64,000 nucleotides of DNA, from assembly GCF_000027125.1 (NCBI RefSeq), contig NC_017626.1. One strand, 5' to 3'. The notes below the pieces were generated by a model. That model had not been told where the DNA came from. It ran no database searches and was given only the letters and a program-made list of their open reading frames with translations. Source of the stretch: Escherichia coli 042. Its GTDB lineage: Bacteria; Pseudomonadota; Gammaproteobacteria; Enterobacterales; Enterobacteriaceae. This document shows, in pieces, positions 5,094 through 12,628 of the stretch. The translations under genes were made by a program, and so were the position numbers. Within the stretch, counting starts at the first letter, position 1. Each line of letters starts with the position of its first letter.

Positions 5094-5220
5094 CAGAATC
5101 CTTCCGGATAATTAGCTCTCCCCTTTAAGGGACCATCCCTCTTATCCCTGCGCGCTACTTAAGTATTTTTGATTCTATTCCGGCACCGTCCAGAACTTCA
5201 AACGCGTTGAAAATAAAAAC

Positions 5221-5240
5221 AAAAACCCGCCGAAGCGGGT
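5221..5240 (-). terminator. Rho-independent terminator downstream of hokD
   Basis: ACCCGCcgaaGCGGGT hairpin preceded on + strand by A-tract (T-tract on minus strand). Confidence 0.5.
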
Positions 5241-5309
5241 TAAGTGCGGGTGCGTTGAGGATGCCTGCCACATCAGAGGTGGCGAGGGATTTCTCCCCCG
5301 CCGGGTCTC

Positions 5310-5465
5310 TTACTCCTCAGGTTCGTAAGCTGTGAAGACAGCGACCTCCGTCTGGCCGGTTCGGATTCGTACCTCGCAGAGGTCTTTCCTCGTTACCAGT
5401 GCCGTCACTATGACGGTTAAACAGATGACGATCAGGGCGATTAACATCGCCTTTTGCTGCTTCAT
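5310..5465 (-). CDS. hokD: Hok-family small membrane toxin HokD (51 aa)
   Basis: Hand translation MKQQKAMLIALIVICLTVIVTALVTRKDLCEVRIRTGQTEVAVFTAYEPEE; below ORF-track size cutoff. Confidence 0.85.
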   Translation of the reverse strand: MKQQKAMLIALIVICLTVIVTALVTRKDLCEVRIRTGQTEVAVFTAYEPEE

Positions 5466-5536
5466 AGCCTGCTTCTCCTGTCAACGCAAAGCAGAAGTGT
5501 CACCTTCGGTGCGAAACAGAGATGTCATGCTTTGGT

Positions 5537-5824
5537 TCAGAGAATGCGTTTGACCGCCTCGCTATATACTTCCGAGCGTTCTCTTTTCCCAACAGAAATC
5601 ACGAAAACGACAACTTTCTCGTCTATAACCTGGTATACAAGGCGATAGCCTGAAGACCGGAGCTTAATCTTGTAACAATCAGGCATACCACGGAGCTTGT
5701 TTGCTTCAATCCGGGGTGACTCAAGTACTTCAACCAGCTTCTTTTTCAACTGTTCACGTACCGTCGAGCCCAGCTTTCGCCATTCCTTTAGTGCCCGCTC
5801 GTCAAAATCCAGAAAATACGCCAT
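5537..5824 (-). CDS. relE: mRNA interferase toxin RelE
   Basis: 95 aa MAYFLDFDERALKEWRKLGSTVREQLKKKL...; recalled identity. Confidence 0.95.
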   Translation of the reverse strand: MAYFLDFDERALKEWRKLGSTVREQLKKKLVEVLESPRIEANKLRGMPDCYKIKLRSSGYRLVYQVIDEKVVVFVISVGKRERSEVYSEAVKRIL

Positions 5825-6063
5825 CAGAGTTCATCCAGCGTCACACGTACTGGCTTAGGATTACGAAGCCGTTCTTTCACTATCTCCACAAGTTCAGCAT
5901 CTTCATCACTCAGGAGTGTCTGTTTGAACGGCAAGCGTTCATTGTCAGCGATATACTCGAGCATGAGACGAAGCGCTTCAGAAGGAGTTACACCCATTTT
6001 TTCAAGCGCGGCGTAAGAACGCGCTTTAAGTTCATCGTCAATACGCAGGTTAATGCTACCCAT
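5824..6063 (-). CDS. relB: Antitoxin RelB
   Basis: 79 aa MGSINLRIDDELKARSYAALEKMGVTPSEALR...; overlaps relE start by 1 nt. Confidence 0.95.
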   Translation of the reverse strand: MGSINLRIDDELKARSYAALEKMGVTPSEALRLMLEYIADNERLPFKQTLLSDEDAELVEIVKERLRNPKPVRVTLDEL

Positions 6064-6087
6064 GTCTTACACCTCTTGTAATTACAA

Positions 6088-6393
6088 ATGTCATTACAAG
6101 TATCGCACTACAACATGCTTAGGGCAAGTCACGAAGGAAGTCAGAAAGTAGTCGTAAGAACGGTGATCACTGTCCGCTTTGTGCCAGGAGCAGCCATTGC
6201 TAAGTCCATCCTGTATTGTGCAGGTCAGCTCGTTTTTAAAGAGTCCGGCCATCATCTTACTGGTACAGACACCATATACTTTGTGACGGTCAGGCTACAT
6301 ATGCACAACTCAACTTATTCATCTATTTTTTGCTTTAGCATGTCAGTGTTGCTTTCTCGTCGGCGGGTGAGCGGTGACCTGACCTGTCGATAA
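6088..6393 (+). CDS. ydfV: Uncharacterised Qin protein YdfV-like (101 aa)
   Basis: 101-aa ORF at the K-12 position between relB and flxA; identity by length and position. Confidence 0.45.
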   Translation: MSLQVSHYNMLRASHEGSQKVVVRTVITVRFVPGAAIAKSILYCAGQLVFKESGHHLTGTDTIYFVTVRLHMHNSTYSSIFCFSMSVLLSRRRVSGDLTCR

Positions 6394-6595
6394 AGGAACG
6401 TAACACGTTTTATGCAACACCCGCATGCGGCAGAAAATTATTGCCGAACGTTTACCCCTGTCAACAAGCTTTACTTTCTGAGGCGCGCCAGCCCGCGAGG
6501 AAAACAATCTGAACATCAAACAATTAATGACACAAGAAATACGATTAAAGATTTTTTTGTGCATGCCGATAGTGCTTTTTTAAAAGGAGAAATCT

Positions 6596-6928
6596 ATGTC
6601 TGTCACAATTCAGGGAAATACCTCAACCGTTATTTCAAACAACTCCGCCCCGGAAGGAACATCAGAAATAGCCAAAATCACAAGACAAATTCAGGTGCTG
6701 ACTGAAAAGCTTGGGAAAATCTCATCGTAAGAGGGGATGACGACACAGCAGAAAAAAGAAATGGCTGCATTGGTACAGAAGCAAATTGAAAGCCTCTGGG
6801 CTCAACTGGAGCAGTTGTTAAGGCAGCAGGCAGAGAAAAAGAATGAAGACGCGACAGTTCAGCCTGATAAAAAAGAAGAGAAAAAAGACGATACAAATAC
6901 CGCTGGCACCATTGATATTTACGTCTAA
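6596..6928 (+). pseudogene. flxA: flxA interrupted by in-frame TAA at codon 45 (6728-6730); downstream 63-aa frame retained
   Basis: Frame MSVTIQGNTSTVISNNSAPEGTSEIAKITRQIQVLTEKLGKISS-stop-EG-MTTQQKKEMAALVQ... gives 110 codons in one frame, matching recalled FlxA length. Confidence 0.55.
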
Positions 6929-7364
6929 GTGACAGCCGTATTGTGGCCCTCATCGGGCCACTTTTCGCCATCAGCCTTTTCTTTAAAGACATATTATCTT
7001 TGTATCATTTCTGATAGTTAACATTACAAGATATAAGTAATGGACGCACTCCCAATTAGTCTATTTAAATCGCCACGAGTTTAACTGACAACCCATGATC
7101 AATTATGAATTGCAACTATTTCTGTAGTCACTTTTGTGGGGACAGTCCACAAAACTGCCAACTTCCGCTTCTTGCTCTTAGCGGACATTAGCATAGGCTA
7201 TTTACCATAACGCCTCATTACGCGCACCGCCCAGACTGACTCAGCGCGTTTCTGGCATATCCCCGGTAAAACAAGTAACAAACCACCCGAAAATGAACAC
7301 CAGAAACGCGACTTAAGAATCTACCCTATGAATGGATATGCACTCAACCGAATCGATCTTGGTT

Positions 7365-8678
7365 TCAATCTTTTTTATCGGGATCAGGCTTCTTTTTAGG
7401 TAACTTCGGGGGCTTAACTTGCTGATGACTTTGCGTTCGGCGCGTAAGCCAGGGATGGTCAGCTTTAGGTTTAACATAGTATTTTGAGCGTAAATCAATA
7501 CGGGCATTATCCACTCGTTCATGGACACTCTTTTCATCATCCAGTGGTATAGGCTCCGGGCCATCAACATACTTTTCCCAGCCCAGCGCTTTCCCGTCAT
7601 ACAGAACGTTAATTTCACCGTCAAAGTTCTCGCATACAGTAACAACCGAATGCCTAAGTCGATATCCCCGGCCCTCACTGCGTACCTGAAACGCACTGCT
7701 TTTGTACTGGAAAGTGAGATTTTTAGACAGAACGCGCTTCGCCTGTAGGCTGAAGATATAACCCAGTTCCTCTTCAGAATGGTGCACATCAAGATGAGCA
7801 TTATCAGTAGTACGAGGCGACGTAGCGAACCGGTTGTTATAGGCTTCAATAAAGGTCGGCAACCATGCATTTGCTGTTTCAATATCACTGATATTCTGAA
7901 GCCGCATTTCTTTGACCAGCCTGTCCTGTAGTGTCTGATTGGCGCGCTCTACCCGCCCTTTTGCCTGCGGGCTGTTGGCATGGATTGGCTCGATGCCCAG
8001 TGTCTTTATCGCACGAGTGAACTGGGTCAGCTCACCTTCCCGCTCTGGGTTATTTACCCTGAATATACTGTGTCTATCAGAGTAGAGAGCGAGCGGTACG
8101 CCATGATCATTAAGGTAACCCCGGAGGGTTTCCATGTAAGCCCGGGTTGTTTCAGCAGGCACAAAACGCAACGCCATCAACGCACTGGTGGCATCATCAA
8201 TGAAAACGATCAGTGTACATCTGGGGCCTCGATTTTCAAACCAGTCATGAGGTGAGCCATCAATCTGGATCAGTTCACCGTAAGATGGTCGTCGCATGCG
8301 GCGTTGATATATACGGGCAATTTTACGACGGCGTTCACGCCATAACCCCTCTTCTACCATCCACTTTCTGAGAGTTTCAACGGATAAAGATAAACCGTGT
8401 ATCTCGCGCAATTTTTCGCACGCAAACGTAGGTCCAAAATCAGCGTAACGGCCTTTGAGGAGTGAAATTACTGTTGCTCTGAATTCAGTAGAAAAGGAAT
8501 TATTAGGACGCTTTCCACGTCGGTGGGAAACCAGACCAGAAGGCCCTTCATTTCTATACCGTTGCACCAGACGTTTAACCTGCCGAATAGAAATGCCAAT
8601 GCGTGCCGCAGCTTGTTCCTGAATAATCTGAAGTCGGTGGAGTTCCTTATGACTCATCGTAACAGTCTCTTTGATCAT
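7365..8678 (-). CDS. DDE (rve-type) transposase, 437 aa, IS481/ISNCY-like
   Basis: N-terminal HTH (RIGISIRQVKRLVQRY) plus integrase-core DDE region (LIQIDGSPHDWF...LIVFIDDATS...SDRHSIF...GRVERANQTL); absent from K-12 at this position by recollection. Confidence 0.7.
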   Translation of the reverse strand: MIKETVTMSHKELHRLQIIQEQAAARIGISIRQVKRLVQRYRNEGPSGLVSHRRGKRPNNSFSTEFRATVISLLKGRYADFGPTFACEKLREIHGLSLSVETLRKWMVEEGLWRERRRKIARIYQRRMRRPSYGELIQIDGSPHDWFENRGPRCTLIVFIDDATSALMALRFVPAETTRAYMETLRGYLNDHGVPLALYSDRHSIFRVNNPEREGELTQFTRAIKTLGIEPIHANSPQAKGRVERANQTLQDRLVKEMRLQNISDIETANAWLPTFIEAYNNRFATSPRTTDNAHLDVHHSEEELGYIFSLQAKRVLSKNLTFQYKSSAFQVRSEGRGYRLRHSVVTVCENFDGEINVLYDGKALGWEKYVDGPEPIPLDDEKSVHERVDNARIDLRSKYYVKPKADHPWLTRRTQSHQQVKPPKLPKKKPDPDKKD

Positions 8679-9012
8679 GAAAAATCCCCCAGAGAATTGT
8701 CTGGGGACATTTTAGAATGGTTCAAAGGGGACATTACAGCTTGGTGTTAACAATAGCCTGCTTCTCCGTGCCTTTCGGCACGTAAGAGGCTAACCTACAT
8801 GTGTCTAGCATGAAATTGGCCTCAGATTAATGTTAAGCGTCTTGCAGGACGCGTAATGTTAACTGGGGCTTTTCTCTATCTGCCGTTGGTGTCCATGCCC
8901 GAGGCAGATAGCCTCAAGCACCCGCAGTCATTCTACTTAACTAAGATTTCCCCGCAAACCGTTTTTGTCCAGCACAGTAAATATCCAACTAAACCAATGG
9001 AGTTCGCTGTAT

Positions 9013-9192
9013 TTACCGCCAGTATTCAATGCACATGACCGCCATGAACACCCCTAAAAAAAGGGCATTTATATATCCAAATATTAATATCAAAACATCA
9101 ACTTTTTCCATATACCTTGCTGTGAAGATGATGGGCATACATGATGCGAACAACCAGAACGCAACAAACAAAAACTGCAATGCGTTTTTCAT
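9013..9192 (-). CDS. Small two-TM membrane protein (59 aa)
   Basis: AGGAGG 6 nt upstream of ATG; MKNALQFLFVAFWLFASCMPIIF...LILIFGYINALFLGVFMAVM hydrophobic. Confidence 0.45.
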   Translation of the reverse strand: MKNALQFLFVAFWLFASCMPIIFTARYMEKVDVLILIFGYINALFLGVFMAVMCIEYWR

Positions 9193-9446
9193 TATTCCTC
9201 CTACAATCAATGTGCAATTACATTTAAACACACCTCAATTTGGCCGGACATATAAATATCTAAACCAGAAAAAATCACTTACATAGCGTTACAAACTCTT
9301 TAGTCTAAAGGTTCATCGTAAAACATTCCCCATACTTATCAGTCCGTTCCGCGCCAGGTAGCTCATTGCCTTATCTGGCAACCTGTAATCAGGTTTCCGC
9401 TTTTTCAGTTGGCTGGTCGTTTAACCGACATAGTTAATCCATTAAT

Positions 9447-9734
9447 CTAGTTGCCGGATGTTGGTGGATTTTCGCGTTTTAGTTGTTCATAAAAGTGCAC
9501 AGCTTTAACCAGTTCTTCTGATGTAACTGGGACTGGTGAGGCAGTGAATAAGGCCTGAATTTGATAGTTCGGCCTGTCGTTACAATCCTCTTTTTTCGGT
9601 ACATATTTCCAGTCACCAGACCACTACTTCCCCTGAAAGTCCGTAACGCCTTTTTTCACGTAGCGATATCGCCATGCCACTGGTTTTGCTTGCCCCGCCG
9701 TTTCATGCCCTTCCTGATAATTAATCTCGCTCAT
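9447..9734 (-). pseudogene. Prophage ORF with in-frame amber (TAG) at codon 37
   Basis: MSEINYQEGHETAGQAKPVAWRYRYVKKGVTDFQGK-amber-WSGDWKYVPKKEDCNDRPNYQ... reads through a single TAG at 9624-9626. Confidence 0.35.
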
Positions 9735-10344
9735 TCATCGCCCCACTCATCACAATATGCTTCGACCGGAGTTTTTCCCGCTTCATAGTCATCACGCTAG
9801 GATTCGACATCAGCAGCACTTCCACCGCGTAACTCACCATAGTCCATTAATAGTTCATCCCGCTCTTCAAAACTGATGTTATATTTAGCTGAACAAAAAT
9901 CAGCCACTTTGTTCTTCCTCATCGTCTTTTATTTCGTGGTATGAGTAATTGCAGTAGTTAAAGAAAATTTCTTATGCTCCGTCATGAATTTCCTCAGGTG
10001 TTGCGTCATCGTCCACTTCGAATACATCCTCAAAATCTCCACCAGCTATTCCCGTTTCAATAATAATTTTGAACTTTCGCATTTCACTACCGCCCTTTCG
10101 GGCGGCCTCCTGATGTTCTGAGGGTGCAGAAATCCATCCGGTTAAGGATTAAATTTTATTTACAGAACTGAATTTAATTATTCAGATATACGTATCTGTA
10201 GCCTTACGAATCTACTCACTGGATGCCTCTTTCATAAAAATAATCCAGTGGGTTTTATCGTTTTTTCCCTGTTCGTTGACAGATAACAGGTTTTCTGTCT
10301 GTCAGTGCCAGAATCTGGCTTACCGGTATTTGCGTTTCATTCCA

Positions 10345-10701
10345 TTAAAAAATCAGAACGCCGTGCGGCCTCAACACCCGAAAGGCTTCTTTAAATCTCT
10401 GTCGCGAATCATCACGCCAGGCATCTTTATTCAGCCGTCCATATTTCTTTCCCATCCAGGCGTTATCACCAACACTCTCAAGATGCGGAGGGTCTAATAC
10501 AACCATCGAAAAAGATGCGTCTGCAAATGATAATGCACGAAAATCTGCGATAATGTCAGGGCTGATAATCAAGCGTCTCCCATTGCGTAATGTGTATCCT
10601 TCTTTTCTGATATCGCTGAATATCGCCCGTTCGTCAGACTTATCGAACCAGAACATGCGGCTGCCACAGCACATATCAAGAATGGTTGCCGGTGCACTCA
10701 C
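10345..10701 (-). CDS. Small SAM-dependent methyltransferase-like protein (118 aa), probably phage DNA MTase
   Basis: Motif I-like ILDMCCGSRMFW and motif IV-like VVLDPPH; nin-like region of lambdoid prophage. Confidence 0.45.
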   Translation of the reverse strand: MSAPATILDMCCGSRMFWFDKSDERAIFSDIRKEGYTLRNGRRLIISPDIIADFRALSFADASFSMVVLDPPHLESVGDNAWMGKKYGRLNKDAWRDDSRQRFKEAFRVLRPHGVLIF

Positions 10702-11120
10702 TGCGCCACGTCCTGAAAATTACCCTGATAGAAAGCCAGTATGCGCTGCATAACTTCGCTCTTCCGGCACTCGCGACAGATTATGTTTAGGCGACTGTCG
10801 TAGCGACGTATTTCTCCGTCAGGTGATGACCAGATAAGGTCCGGATCAACCACAGCAGGTTTCTTCACCTTTGCCCTCGAGAGTTTTTTGCGGGCGTTTT
10901 GCCAGTCCTTACGCGCCTGTTCAGAGGGGAATAACCCGTAGCCGGAGTTGTATACATCGCCACTGGCTACCAGCTCTCTGGCAAGAACGCTCATCAGATA
11001 TCTAGTCGCACCTGTTTTAGCTTCCAGTTGCCGTAACGTCTCACGGCCGCTCTGGCGCACGAGTTCCACCACCTGCCATTTAATTTTTTCCCGCTCTTCT
11101 TGTGTAAAAACTTTTGCCAC
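10698..11120 (-). CDS. Hypothetical phage early protein (140 aa)
   Basis: ORF in operon with replication gene; stop overlaps downstream gene start. Confidence 0.45.
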   Translation of the reverse strand: MAKVFTQEEREKIKWQVVELVRQSGRETLRQLEAKTGATRYLMSVLARELVASGDVYNSGYGLFPSEQARKDWQNARKKLSRAKVKKPAVVDPDLIWSSPDGEIRRYDSRLNIICRECRKSEVMQRILAFYQGNFQDVAQ

Positions 11121-11160
11121 AAGTCCCCCTTAAAATTACCTCATGACCTGAAATCAACAC

Positions 11161-12126
11161 TTATCCTCTGAAACCAGGCGGAATTTCTGTATCCGGTTCA
11201 GAAATATGATTAACACAACGCTGTACAGGTGAACGTCCCAGGCGGATGACCAGTTCGTCCCATTTTTCGCGGAGCTTTGACGGGCTCATGATGTTTTTGA
11301 CCCAGAATGGATCTCGCTGAACCCGACCAAACATTTCGCAAATTTGTCTGTGGCTTCTGCCATCCAGCATCCGCATTGTGCGCACGTCATTGGCCCAGGC
11401 AGTCCAGTTAGGCTCTTTTGGTCGCATGATCTCGCCATCATCACTGGCTGCCTGTTCGTAGAGACCCACGATCCGCCCCCAGATCCACTGCGCACACGCC
11501 AAATCCTCCCTGCTACCCCACTGGCGTTTTTTCGCACTAAACACAACCGCGTCGGAGTTCCGGGTTAAAAAATCCTGTTCAGTCGTCTGCGGGTCCGGTT
11601 GCGAAGCTTCCGGACGAAAAGTGTTTTTATTCTCTGTAGTAGTCTCTGTTGTATTCTCTGTAAGATCATCAGGCCATTTTGACCCGATGACATTGGGTCG
11701 TTTTGAACCAATGGAGCGTTTCATTTTGACCTCTTCCATCGTGTCATTTTGACCTGATGGAGCGGCGCATTTTGAACCGATGGATTCGCTCAATTTGCCA
11801 CCATCTAAAAGCTCGCTCCCATAGTTGATCGTGTAGAAATTGGTCATATCGCGCTTTGATTTATTGAGCTTTTCACAACGCAAAAGCCCCAGCGTTTTCA
11901 GACTTGCAAACGCGCGCTTTAACGTTGACTCTGACCAGAATGGGAACTGTTCCAGCCATTGTTCCGTTGTGTTATAAATCCAGCGAACACCATCACATTC
12001 CATGCCGGAGTTGGTATCTCTCAACCAGTAGTGCAGTTGTTGCAAAACAATGGCTTCGTTTAAGCCAATTTTCATTGCCAGCTGCGTGTTTATAACCAGT
12101 GGGCGTTCAGCAAAAAGAAGGCTCAT
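11161..12126 (-). CDS. Putative phage replication initiation protein (HTH N-domain)
   Basis: Position downstream of cro-like dicC; N-terminal region LNEAIVLQQLHYWLRD...WIYNTTEQWLEQFPFWSESTLKRAF resembles replisome-organiser HTH domains; start chosen at MSLLFAERP. Confidence 0.5.
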   Translation of the reverse strand: MSLLFAERPLVINTQLAMKIGLNEAIVLQQLHYWLRDTNSGMECDGVRWIYNTTEQWLEQFPFWSESTLKRAFASLKTLGLLRCEKLNKSKRDMTNFYTINYGSELLDGGKLSESIGSKCAAPSGQNDTMEEVKMKRSIGSKRPNVIGSKWPDDLTENTTETTTENKNTFRPEASQPDPQTTEQDFLTRNSDAVVFSAKKRQWGSREDLACAQWIWGRIVGLYEQAASDDGEIMRPKEPNWTAWANDVRTMRMLDGRSHRQICEMFGRVQRDPFWVKNIMSPSKLREKWDELVIRLGRSPVQRCVNHISEPDTEIPPGFRG

Positions 12127-12628
12127 AATTCCATCCAGCTTTTTGTTGGTATTGCTGTCGATACGCAAGTTTGAAAGCAATTGCTTTTTCTATAAGTTCG
12201 TCAGTTTCACGATCCACTACGGCAGGATCAGCAAAAAGCAGTCCGGACTCCACCACATCGCCATATTCTTTGTTTAACCCGGCGATCATGCACGTGATGC
12301 TTTTTCCGTCAGTAATTTCACGATACAACCTGAAATCATTAATCCGGATAGCCTCCATAATTGCAGGCACTAGCGCCGTGAACTTTTCACGCTTATCCCT
12401 GGTGTCGATAGCCTTCCAGCGTTCAAATATCTTCACTCGATTAACGCCAAGCGCTCGCTGATCAATCGCGCCACCTTCATATGTGACACGCTGAACATCG
12501 ATGTTCGGGCGCTCTTTCAAAGCCCAGAATGCTTCAGTGATTAATATCGTCGCCTGCTCCTGTGTCATTCCTGGTCGACATATCCAGGCATCCAGAGCCT
12601 CACGAGCCTGTTCAGGAGTGATTTTCAT
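12107..12628 (-). CDS. Phage early protein, YdfX-like (173 aa)
   Basis: ORF directly downstream of dicC in same operon. Confidence 0.45.
   Translation of the reverse strand: MKITPEQAREALDAWICRPGMTQEQATILITEAFWALKERPNIDVQRVTYEGGAIDQRALGVNRVKIFERWKAIDTRDKREKFTALVPAIMEAIRINDFRLYREITDGKSITCMIAGLNKEYGDVVESGLLFADPAVVDRETDELIEKAIAFKLAYRQQYQQKAGWNYEPSFC

Follow-up and report, generated by a model that had tools for sequence, protein, structure and literature searches.

A 59-codon gene for a predicted small membrane protein in the early region of a Qin-like prophage of Escherichia coli 042

Introduction

Does a short open reading frame (ORF) in the early region of a defective prophage of Escherichia coli 042 encode a protein, and if so, what might that protein do? 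The frame lies on the minus strand of a 64,000-nucleotide stretch of contig NC_017626.1 (assembly GCF_000027125.1), which we refer to throughout as the window, and a sequence-only reading of this DNA had proposed that it is a gene for a small membrane protein. Here we compare the frame with a distant relative found elsewhere in E. coli, and consider its predicted architecture, genomic setting and distribution. On balance we favour the explanation that this is a real and essentially unannotated gene of a lambdoid prophage, whose product would be an inner-membrane hairpin made from the early operon and perhaps acting by perturbing the membrane.

Results and Discussion

The reading frame and its translation signals

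The minus-strand ORF of 59 codons translates in the window as the peptide MKNALQFLFVAFWLFASCMPIIFTARYMEKVDVLILIFGYINALFLGVFMAVMCIEYWR, and is listed with its neighbouring features in Table 1. The sequence-only reading had placed a gene at 9013-9192 preceded by a consensus Shine-Dalgarno sequence, and both statements proved exact, with the strand being minus, AGGAGG found 4 nt 5' of the ATG, and coding backed by the comparison with a paralogue described below. Some alleles carry AGGGGG as the Shine-Dalgarno sequence, and the paralogue has AGGGA 7 nt 5' of its own ATG. A program-made list of ORFs had stretched the same frame to a GTG at 9231, which would give 72 aa and is the start used in some GenBank entries. 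This start was rejected, as it has no Shine-Dalgarno sequence and the paralogue contains an in-frame stop five codons before its ATG. Because of that upstream stop, the conserved start by this comparison is the ATG at 9192, not the GTG at 9231.

Taken alone, the combination of Shine-Dalgarno sequence and ORF is not beyond chance expectation: AGGAGG followed 3-10 nt on by a start codon and at least 50 open codons occurs twice in the window, versus 1.17 +/- 1.15 times in shuffled sequence, and the reality of the gene therefore rests on comparative evidence. GC content of the ORF is 37%, against 48.6% for the window. The spacer upstream of the ATG contains no match to the sigma-70 consensus (0 sites), a weak negative because the consensus-based promoter scan also misses the hok promoter region. 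RNA structure at the Shine-Dalgarno sequence and spacer is not significant (fold z-score -0.25), and neither a structure masking the Shine-Dalgarno sequence nor a terminator belonging to the ORF itself was detected. The same spacer contains, directly after the stop of the upstream gene, a palindrome of 13 bp (9298-9310; minus-strand sequence CTTTAG-A-CTAAAG) that occurs once in the window and is represented at the paralogue locus by CTTCAG-T-CTGAAG, a compensatory double change.

Table 1. Coordinates of the 59-codon gene and of associated features in the window
Feature	Positions	Strand	Evidence and remarks
CDS, 59-aa small membrane protein (predicted)	9013..9192	-	ATG 9192-9190, TAA 9015-9013; translation and paralogue comparison
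Shine-Dalgarno sequence AGGAGG	9197..9202 (9202-9197)	-	4-nt spacer before ATG
AT-rich spacer of about 120 nt, from upstream pseudogene stop to ATG	9193..9312	-	Holds the Shine-Dalgarno sequence; GC 35-40%
Predicted membrane helix 1, codons 4-25	9118..9183	-	Hydropathy, AF2; invariant W13, S17, C18, P20, I21, I22, T24
Predicted membrane helix 2, codons 33-55	9028..9096	-	Hydropathy, AF2; invariant F38, G39, N42, A43, L44, G47
hok mRNA leader / sok antisense element	8752..8923	-	Rfam RF01794, 104 bits, E 2e-23; starts 90 nt past the ORF stop
IS1202/ISNCY-family element, 3,274 bp	5479-8752		437-aa transposase 8678-7365; passengers flxA, ydfV, relB, relE

Conservation of the frame between two families

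When the protein was compared exhaustively by phmmer with 1.84 billion representatives, the matches were close copies from E. coli and Shigella and one distant full-length relative, P0037, which is exactly 59 aa long, is 41% identical to the window protein (24/59; E 1e-8), and is a member of a second E. coli family (P0042/P0046) that includes HMPREF0358_2809 of strain 83972. The window gene aligns with this paralogue (L007 829-1008) with zero gaps and with start and stop in register. Identity at the three codon positions is 58, 69 and 47%, an excess of third-position change (p = 0.01), and dN is 0.47 with dS about 2 (saturated), giving a dN/dS of about 0.24. Only the 59-codon frame, out of six, is open in both families, and its BLOSUM62 score is 145 versus 13, 56, 31, 55 and -10 for the other frames. 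A column-shuffle null gave 39 +/- 20 (mean and standard deviation), with none of 20000 shuffles reaching 145; no neutral-mutation simulation reached this score, and the ORF stayed open in 2.6%. Flanking DNA of the window gene and the paralogue aligns with 44-54% identity and 28-34 gaps. Because the conservation between the two families is both ungapped and specific to this frame, we consider with high confidence that the 59-codon ORF is a genuine protein-coding gene. At the level of sequence, the same alignment, which constitutes a single deep comparison (one species group, two subfamilies), demonstrates long-term purifying selection on it. The reading of the frame as a chance ORF in T-rich DNA, hydrophobic by default and no gene at all, is strongly disfavoured by this comparison and seems extremely improbable, since equal length, zero gaps, amino acid conservation confined to one frame under two nulls (0/20000) and the third-position excess outweigh an unexceptional count of Shine-Dalgarno sequences with ORFs, AT-rich sequence, the lack of synonymous polymorphism and the absence of a RefSeq/PGAP call in 40/40 sampled records.

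An overlapping 85-aa ORF on the opposite strand (9029-9286, +) was considered and rejected: it is interrupted by two stops in the paralogue, and its BLOSUM score is 55. Three phage records contain the 59-codon ORF and all have this antisense frame annotated: PV340562.1, ON470612.1 and ON470619.1 show an antisense ORF of 83-85 aa at the locus, named 'hornerin' in two of them and otherwise hypothetical. From the pattern of conservation, these calls are probably mis-annotation.

Neither 59-aa family matched Pfam, PHROGs or PADLOC at E <= 10 (0 matches), and NCBIfam at the same threshold gave nothing but a sub-threshold match of the paralogue to TIGR03647 (E 0.12), which we judged compositional. 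No third family emerged when the two-family alignment was used as a profile, or when viral contigs and 100,044 genomes, one per species, were scanned with peptide patterns. The sole match of the species scan was a contig (L091, JAIJJM010000167.1; 44.5% GC) of a metagenome-assembled genome labelled Collinsella sp., which is 99.9% identical to window 6016-10853 and is almost certainly mis-binned E. coli prophage DNA. Nothing was found in the literature on either of the two peptides, on a locus tag, or on a small protein adjacent to hokD. The family thus looks restricted to E. coli and Shigella, with two subfamilies. It is a small family absent from these profile libraries, and of an ordinary kind, the small membrane proteins of prophages.

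Predicted architecture of the protein

The protein had been described from sequence as strongly hydrophobic, with two transmembrane segments, and prediction agrees on both counts. Its GRAVY is 1.27, and Kyte-Doolittle hydropathy in 19-residue windows peaks at 2.14 (about residues 7-25) and at 2.39 (about residues 33-52), with RYMEKVD between the peaks. AlphaFold2 (AF2), working from a shallow alignment, modelled helices at residues 2-26 and 28-58 with a pLDDT of 74. Foldseek comparison of this model with the PDB returned generic hairpins only (E >= 5.7). Neither homology nor fold points to a particular mechanism. Across both families 20 columns are invariant, including the C-terminal E56-x-W58-R59, and those in the second helix form a small-xxx-small face with a buried Asn. 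The N-terminus carries a charge of +1 or +2 and the loop a charge of 0 or -2, a pattern that fits an N-in orientation.

We are fairly confident that the 59-aa product is a membrane protein, and the model makes it likely that it is an uncleaved hairpin of two helices. Its topology would be N-in/C-in with a periplasmic loop of about 7 residues, given a positive N-terminus, a neutral or acidic loop and two predicted helices of membrane-spanning length. The other architecture to be weighed is that of a small lipoprotein, in which residues 1-17 would be a signal peptide and signal peptidase II would cut at S17|C18, leaving a lipid-modified peptide of 42 aa with one C-terminal membrane helix. Both families satisfy a loose PROSITE-type lipoprotein rule (K or R within residues 1-7, an uncharged stretch and [AGS]-C, with the Cys at 18), S17-C18 is invariant across families, and VIS|C in the paralogue is a strict lipobox. 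However, the window family has Phe at -3 (FAS|C18) and so fails the strict lipobox [LVI][ASTVI][GAS]C, and the loose rule is passed by 8-9% of shuffled helix-1 sequences. Furthermore, the MPIIFTA stretch after Cys18 is hydrophobic and continues the helix, where typical mature lipoprotein N-termini differ, and AF2 models residues 2-26 as one unbroken helix. Because of the Phe at -3, the hydrophobic stretch after Cys18 and the rate at which shuffled sequences pass, the lipoprotein is the less likely architecture, and we regard both the cleavage and the resulting peptide as improbable.

Distribution and annotation

Of 5426 complete E. coli genomes, 1567 (about 29%) carry the DNA of the ORF, always at 95% identity or more. 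No annotated feature covers it in any of 40 records sampled across the ranking, and ATCC 8739, with identical DNA, has no gene call at the ORF. A few GenBank submissions list a 'hypothetical protein' of 59 or 72 aa. The paralogue, single-copy in 1045 of the 5426 genomes (19%), is likewise without annotation in 15/15 sampled records. Its locus is the ttcA (Rac-type) site, within what is left of a badly degraded prophage, at about 7230-7409 of L009 from JJ1886, in the order integrase fragment, DUF1627 fragment, ORF and frameshifted metal-transporter permease gene. No intact phage record contained the paralogue, and tblastn found no remnant of the window's upstream genes at its locus.

K-12 MG1655 (L090) lacks the ORF, owing to a 4.8-kb deletion in Qin that corresponds to window 7550-12348. 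We note that the hok leader, the bulk of the transposase gene and genes of the replication region are lost with it. As K-12 is without the region, surveys of small proteins in K-12 could not have caught the 59-aa gene. If it is expressed, the protein would be one more small membrane protein absent from E. coli annotation; the relevance is that of a correction for annotation pipelines, and no new concept is opened.

Prophage setting and proposed role

The neighbouring genes identify the host element as a Qin-like defective lambdoid prophage. With dicA on the plus strand, the minus-strand genes upstream of the ORF are dicC, a ydaT-like gene, an O-like replication gene, a DUF977 gene, a SAM methyltransferase gene and three small interrupted genes. 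Downstream lie the hok/sok leader, an ISNCY-type transposase gene, flxA, ydfV, relB, relE and hokD, followed by rem, ydfU and the Q-like ydfT. The assignment to the prophage early region made from sequence alone is borne out, as the ORF shares the coding strand of the early-right operon and has the replication module on one side and the Q-like antiterminator on the other. The gene belongs to the delayed-early (nin-like) accessory stretch that runs from the replication genes to Q, and stands directly before hok/sok. Four upstream genes that were searched gave no Pfam match. The three interrupted genes, at 9313-10082 (-), are a DUF7167 gene and hypotheticals of 58 and 104 aa, each with an in-frame stop and the third also with an insertion; all three are intact in a related locus (L005).

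Read-through of the early-right operon, once a DicA-type repressor is lifted, is the mode of transcription that we propose, because a promoter of its own was not detected in the weak scan, and expression as part of the early operon seems reasonably likely. As the three genes directly upstream are interrupted and the prophage is defective, transcription and anti-polarity in the window itself are doubtful. Translation would be independent, from the strong Shine-Dalgarno sequence. The product would then form a helical hairpin in the inner membrane, with its C-terminal IE-x-WR at the cytoplasmic face. S17-C18-x-P20, T24 and G39-xx-N42-A43-xxx-G47 could provide for packing between helices, which is to be expected because small-xxx-small faces with a buried Asn typically mediate packing, and this might be self-association or binding to an inner-membrane protein of the host. 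A burst of synthesis on induction would perturb the membrane or inhibit growth, as other small early prophage proteins do. A toxic or membrane-perturbing role of this kind is put forward tentatively, and topology, timing of expression, oligomerisation and phenotype are each what we infer from the evidence above.

Known small proteins offer partial parallels to this proposal. GhoT/OrtT of E. coli (57 aa, PF10753) is of nearly equal size, with two helices, a short loop and few soluble residues, and proteins of this kind damage the membrane when made. However, there is no sequence similarity, with no match to PF10753 at a Pfam E <= 10, and the window gene has no adjacent ghoS-like antitoxin, is carried by a prophage and is confined to E. 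coli and Shigella. Lambda Kil, Rac KilR, Qin DicB and YdfD are, as the window gene would be by analogy, products of short genes in an early operon under repressor control, which are silent in the lysogen and come on with derepression, and YdfD is in addition membrane-associated and annotated 'lysis protein'. These proteins are unrelated in sequence to that of the window, whose gene is on the right-hand arm (replication to Q) and not on the left-hand dicB arm; Kil and DicB are soluble division inhibitors, in contrast to the predicted integral membrane hairpin. No holin match was found in Pfam or PHROGs, and the gene follows the replication genes and precedes Q, whereas the lysis genes come after Q.

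Recent polymorphism and the possibility of a silent relic

DNA identity among copies of the same family is 95-100%, and tests of polymorphism consequently have low power. Among 85 copies of the prophage family the ORF has 5 polymorphic sites, all nonsynonymous (A16V, V31I, I37M, Y40H and L44I), and the paralogue family has two polymorphisms, also both nonsynonymous (V6M and R33I). Purifying selection is thus not evident in recent polymorphism, 7/7 changes across both families being nonsynonymous, with few events in all. Most of the within-family substitutions are conservative, and I37M and Y40H lead to the residues of the paralogue (M37 and H40). Polymorphic sites number 5/180 in the ORF versus 15/206 in the adjacent spacers (Fisher p = 0.064), the upstream spacer alone having 9 versus 5 in the ORF. 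All 85 sampled copies are intact, in a sample retrieved by peptide patterns, which favours intact copies. Variants in protein databases include frameshifts at homopolymer runs and truncations at other junctions, and at least some of these look like assembly errors, as in L008, a contig riddled with homopolymer indels.

These observations bear on the view that the family is real but that the gene in this window is a silent relic, a passenger in a cryptic prophage that is decaying, with no present function in the host. Around it lie pseudogenes (the three interrupted genes upstream, and flxA at 6596-6928 (+), which has an internal stop) and a severed hok leader, the polymorphisms are nonsynonymous throughout, and the region has gone from K-12 without known consequence. 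Selective retention of the ORF amid decayed neighbours was considered and rejected as an argument, because 3 stops in 222 upstream codons predict about 0.8 in 59 codons, and intactness is accordingly not significant. Against the relic stand the intactness of every copy in this admittedly biased sample, the polymorphism somewhat below that of the flanks, and the conservative nature of the substitutions, two of which revert to paralogue residues. We therefore consider a silent relic to be unlikely, if a serious candidate, and continue with the reading of the gene as one for a membrane-perturbing early protein.

Superinfection exclusion and other roles in conflict

The sequence-only reading had named superinfection exclusion and membrane-targeting toxicity as frequent roles of proteins of this sort in prophage early regions, which is a reasonable guess here. 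The main functional rival of the toxicity reading is phage exclusion, in which the inner-membrane protein would block DNA entry of an incoming phage and so protect the lysogen or the induced cell. A small inner-membrane protein encoded by an AT-rich gene in the accessory region of a prophage would suit this role, as would all-nonsynonymous polymorphism in a conflict gene. Plasmid hok/sok has been linked to phage exclusion, and the ORF is co-inherited with a hok/sok element. Among known exclusion proteins, T4 Imm and HK97 gp15 block the DNA entry of incoming phages, and Llp and Cor are small lipoproteins; the window protein is like T4 Imm, HK97 gp15, P22 SieA, Llp and Cor in being a small envelope protein of a phage, in its accessory position and in its possible lipobox. 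However, it matches none of these families: Imm, Sie and the PADLOC models all lack similarity to it, and PADLOC, PHROGs and Pfam gave no homology to superinfection-exclusion or defence proteins (0 matches). Constitutive exclusion would need a promoter of its own for expression in the lysogen, and none was detected, if by a weak scan. The predicted protein also has essentially no periplasmic domain, and almost no extramembrane residues with which to touch the injection apparatus, and the polymorphism count is too small for diversifying selection. Exclusion is consequently an improbable role, even with the link between plasmid hok/sok and phage exclusion that is made in the discussion of 10.1101/2025.08.07.668861.

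A broader proposal is that the two families constitute an unrecognised class of prophage membrane effectors specific to E. coli, kept by the host for its own benefit and acting in conflict between phages or between phage and host, alone or with hok/sok and possibly lipid-modified. The prophage family is intact in Qin-like cryptic prophages, and the paralogue in the ttcA-site remnant, itself highly degraded, of about 1,000 genomes (JJ1886 included). We regard such a class as speculative and rather remote, and retain the ordinary membrane-perturbing protein of the early operon as the preferred reading.

Relationship to the adjacent hok/sok element

The ORF is closely associated with hok/sok. A hokD gene is found downstream in 77 of 85 loci, and in 53 of these its ATG follows the ORF stop by 258-270 nt; there is no terminator between the ORF and hok/sok. 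A putative hok promoter (-35 at 8957-8952 and -10 at 8935-8930, assigned by eye) begins about 55 nt past the ORF stop. The genes farther upstream vary among prophages, and so the ORF and hok/sok travel together. This arrangement suggests that the ORF might be an accessory of hok/sok, either through a protein that modulates the insertion or activity of Hok, or through an influence of its translation or transcription on read-through hok mRNA. However, no hok/sok element was found near the paralogue (Rfam scan, E <= 5), so the linkage is not obligatory, and a wider 801-nt query that includes the hok leader matches 4331 genomes versus 1567 for the ORF, from which most hok-leader loci appear to be without it. 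In the window and in 24/85 loci the hokD CDS is displaced by 3.3 kb and the ORF is intact. The classic hok loci are not known to require a partner of this sort. An accessory role is therefore very improbable.

Nor does the window protein itself resemble Hok beyond its general properties. Both Hok/Gef and the window protein are tiny hydrophobic peptides of the inner membrane (as predicted for the latter), encoded on one strand of a shared cassette, with about 260 nt between them. Hok has about 50 aa, one helix, a periplasmic tail containing Cys, and control by mok/sok and mRNA folding. The window ORF, in contrast, has two predicted helices, an exposed consensus Shine-Dalgarno sequence and no match to the Hok/Gef profile (PF01848) at a Pfam E <= 10. 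It also has no antisense RNA match, as the only Rfam match over the ORF, to sok on the plus strand (18.9 bits, E 0.89), is at noise level, and a weak consensus scan found no promoter-like site on either strand.

The displacement of hokD in the window may be due to an insertion sequence. The hok leader is severed from the hokD CDS at 8753, with the hokD ATG at 5465, whereas the same hok/sok element runs straight into hokD in three intact cassettes (L003, L004 and L005). The intervening element has imperfect inverted repeats with a TGT start, 18/25 matching, exactly at its junctions, and on either side of it stands an exact direct repeat of 15 bp, GGAGAAGCAGGCTAT (5464-5478 and 8753-8767). In the intact cassettes GGAGAAGCAGGCTAT occurs once, directly before and overlapping the hokD ATG, and constitutes the empty site. 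The transposase has HTH and rve domains and is assigned to the ISNCY family by RefSeq in identical DNA. Direct repeats of 15-17 bp, TGT termini and occasional passenger genes are features of the ISTde1 subgroup of the IS1202 family (10.1101/2022.12.17.520857). The relB-relE-hokD (relF) order of Qin, without a hok leader, thus looks like the result of a cargo-carrying IS that landed at the hokD start codon, and we propose that this is why hokD follows relBE there.

Two minor observations were made in this region. YdfW of K-12 matches the final 49 codons of the ISNCY-type transposase ORF (window 7365-7514), of which it is a C-terminal remnant. Just downstream of hokD, at 5220-5301 (-), is a weak isrK-like match in Rfam (25 bits, E 0.037) that stays under the gathering score and ends in a GC-rich hairpin and a U-run, and it may simply be the terminator of the hok/rel operon.
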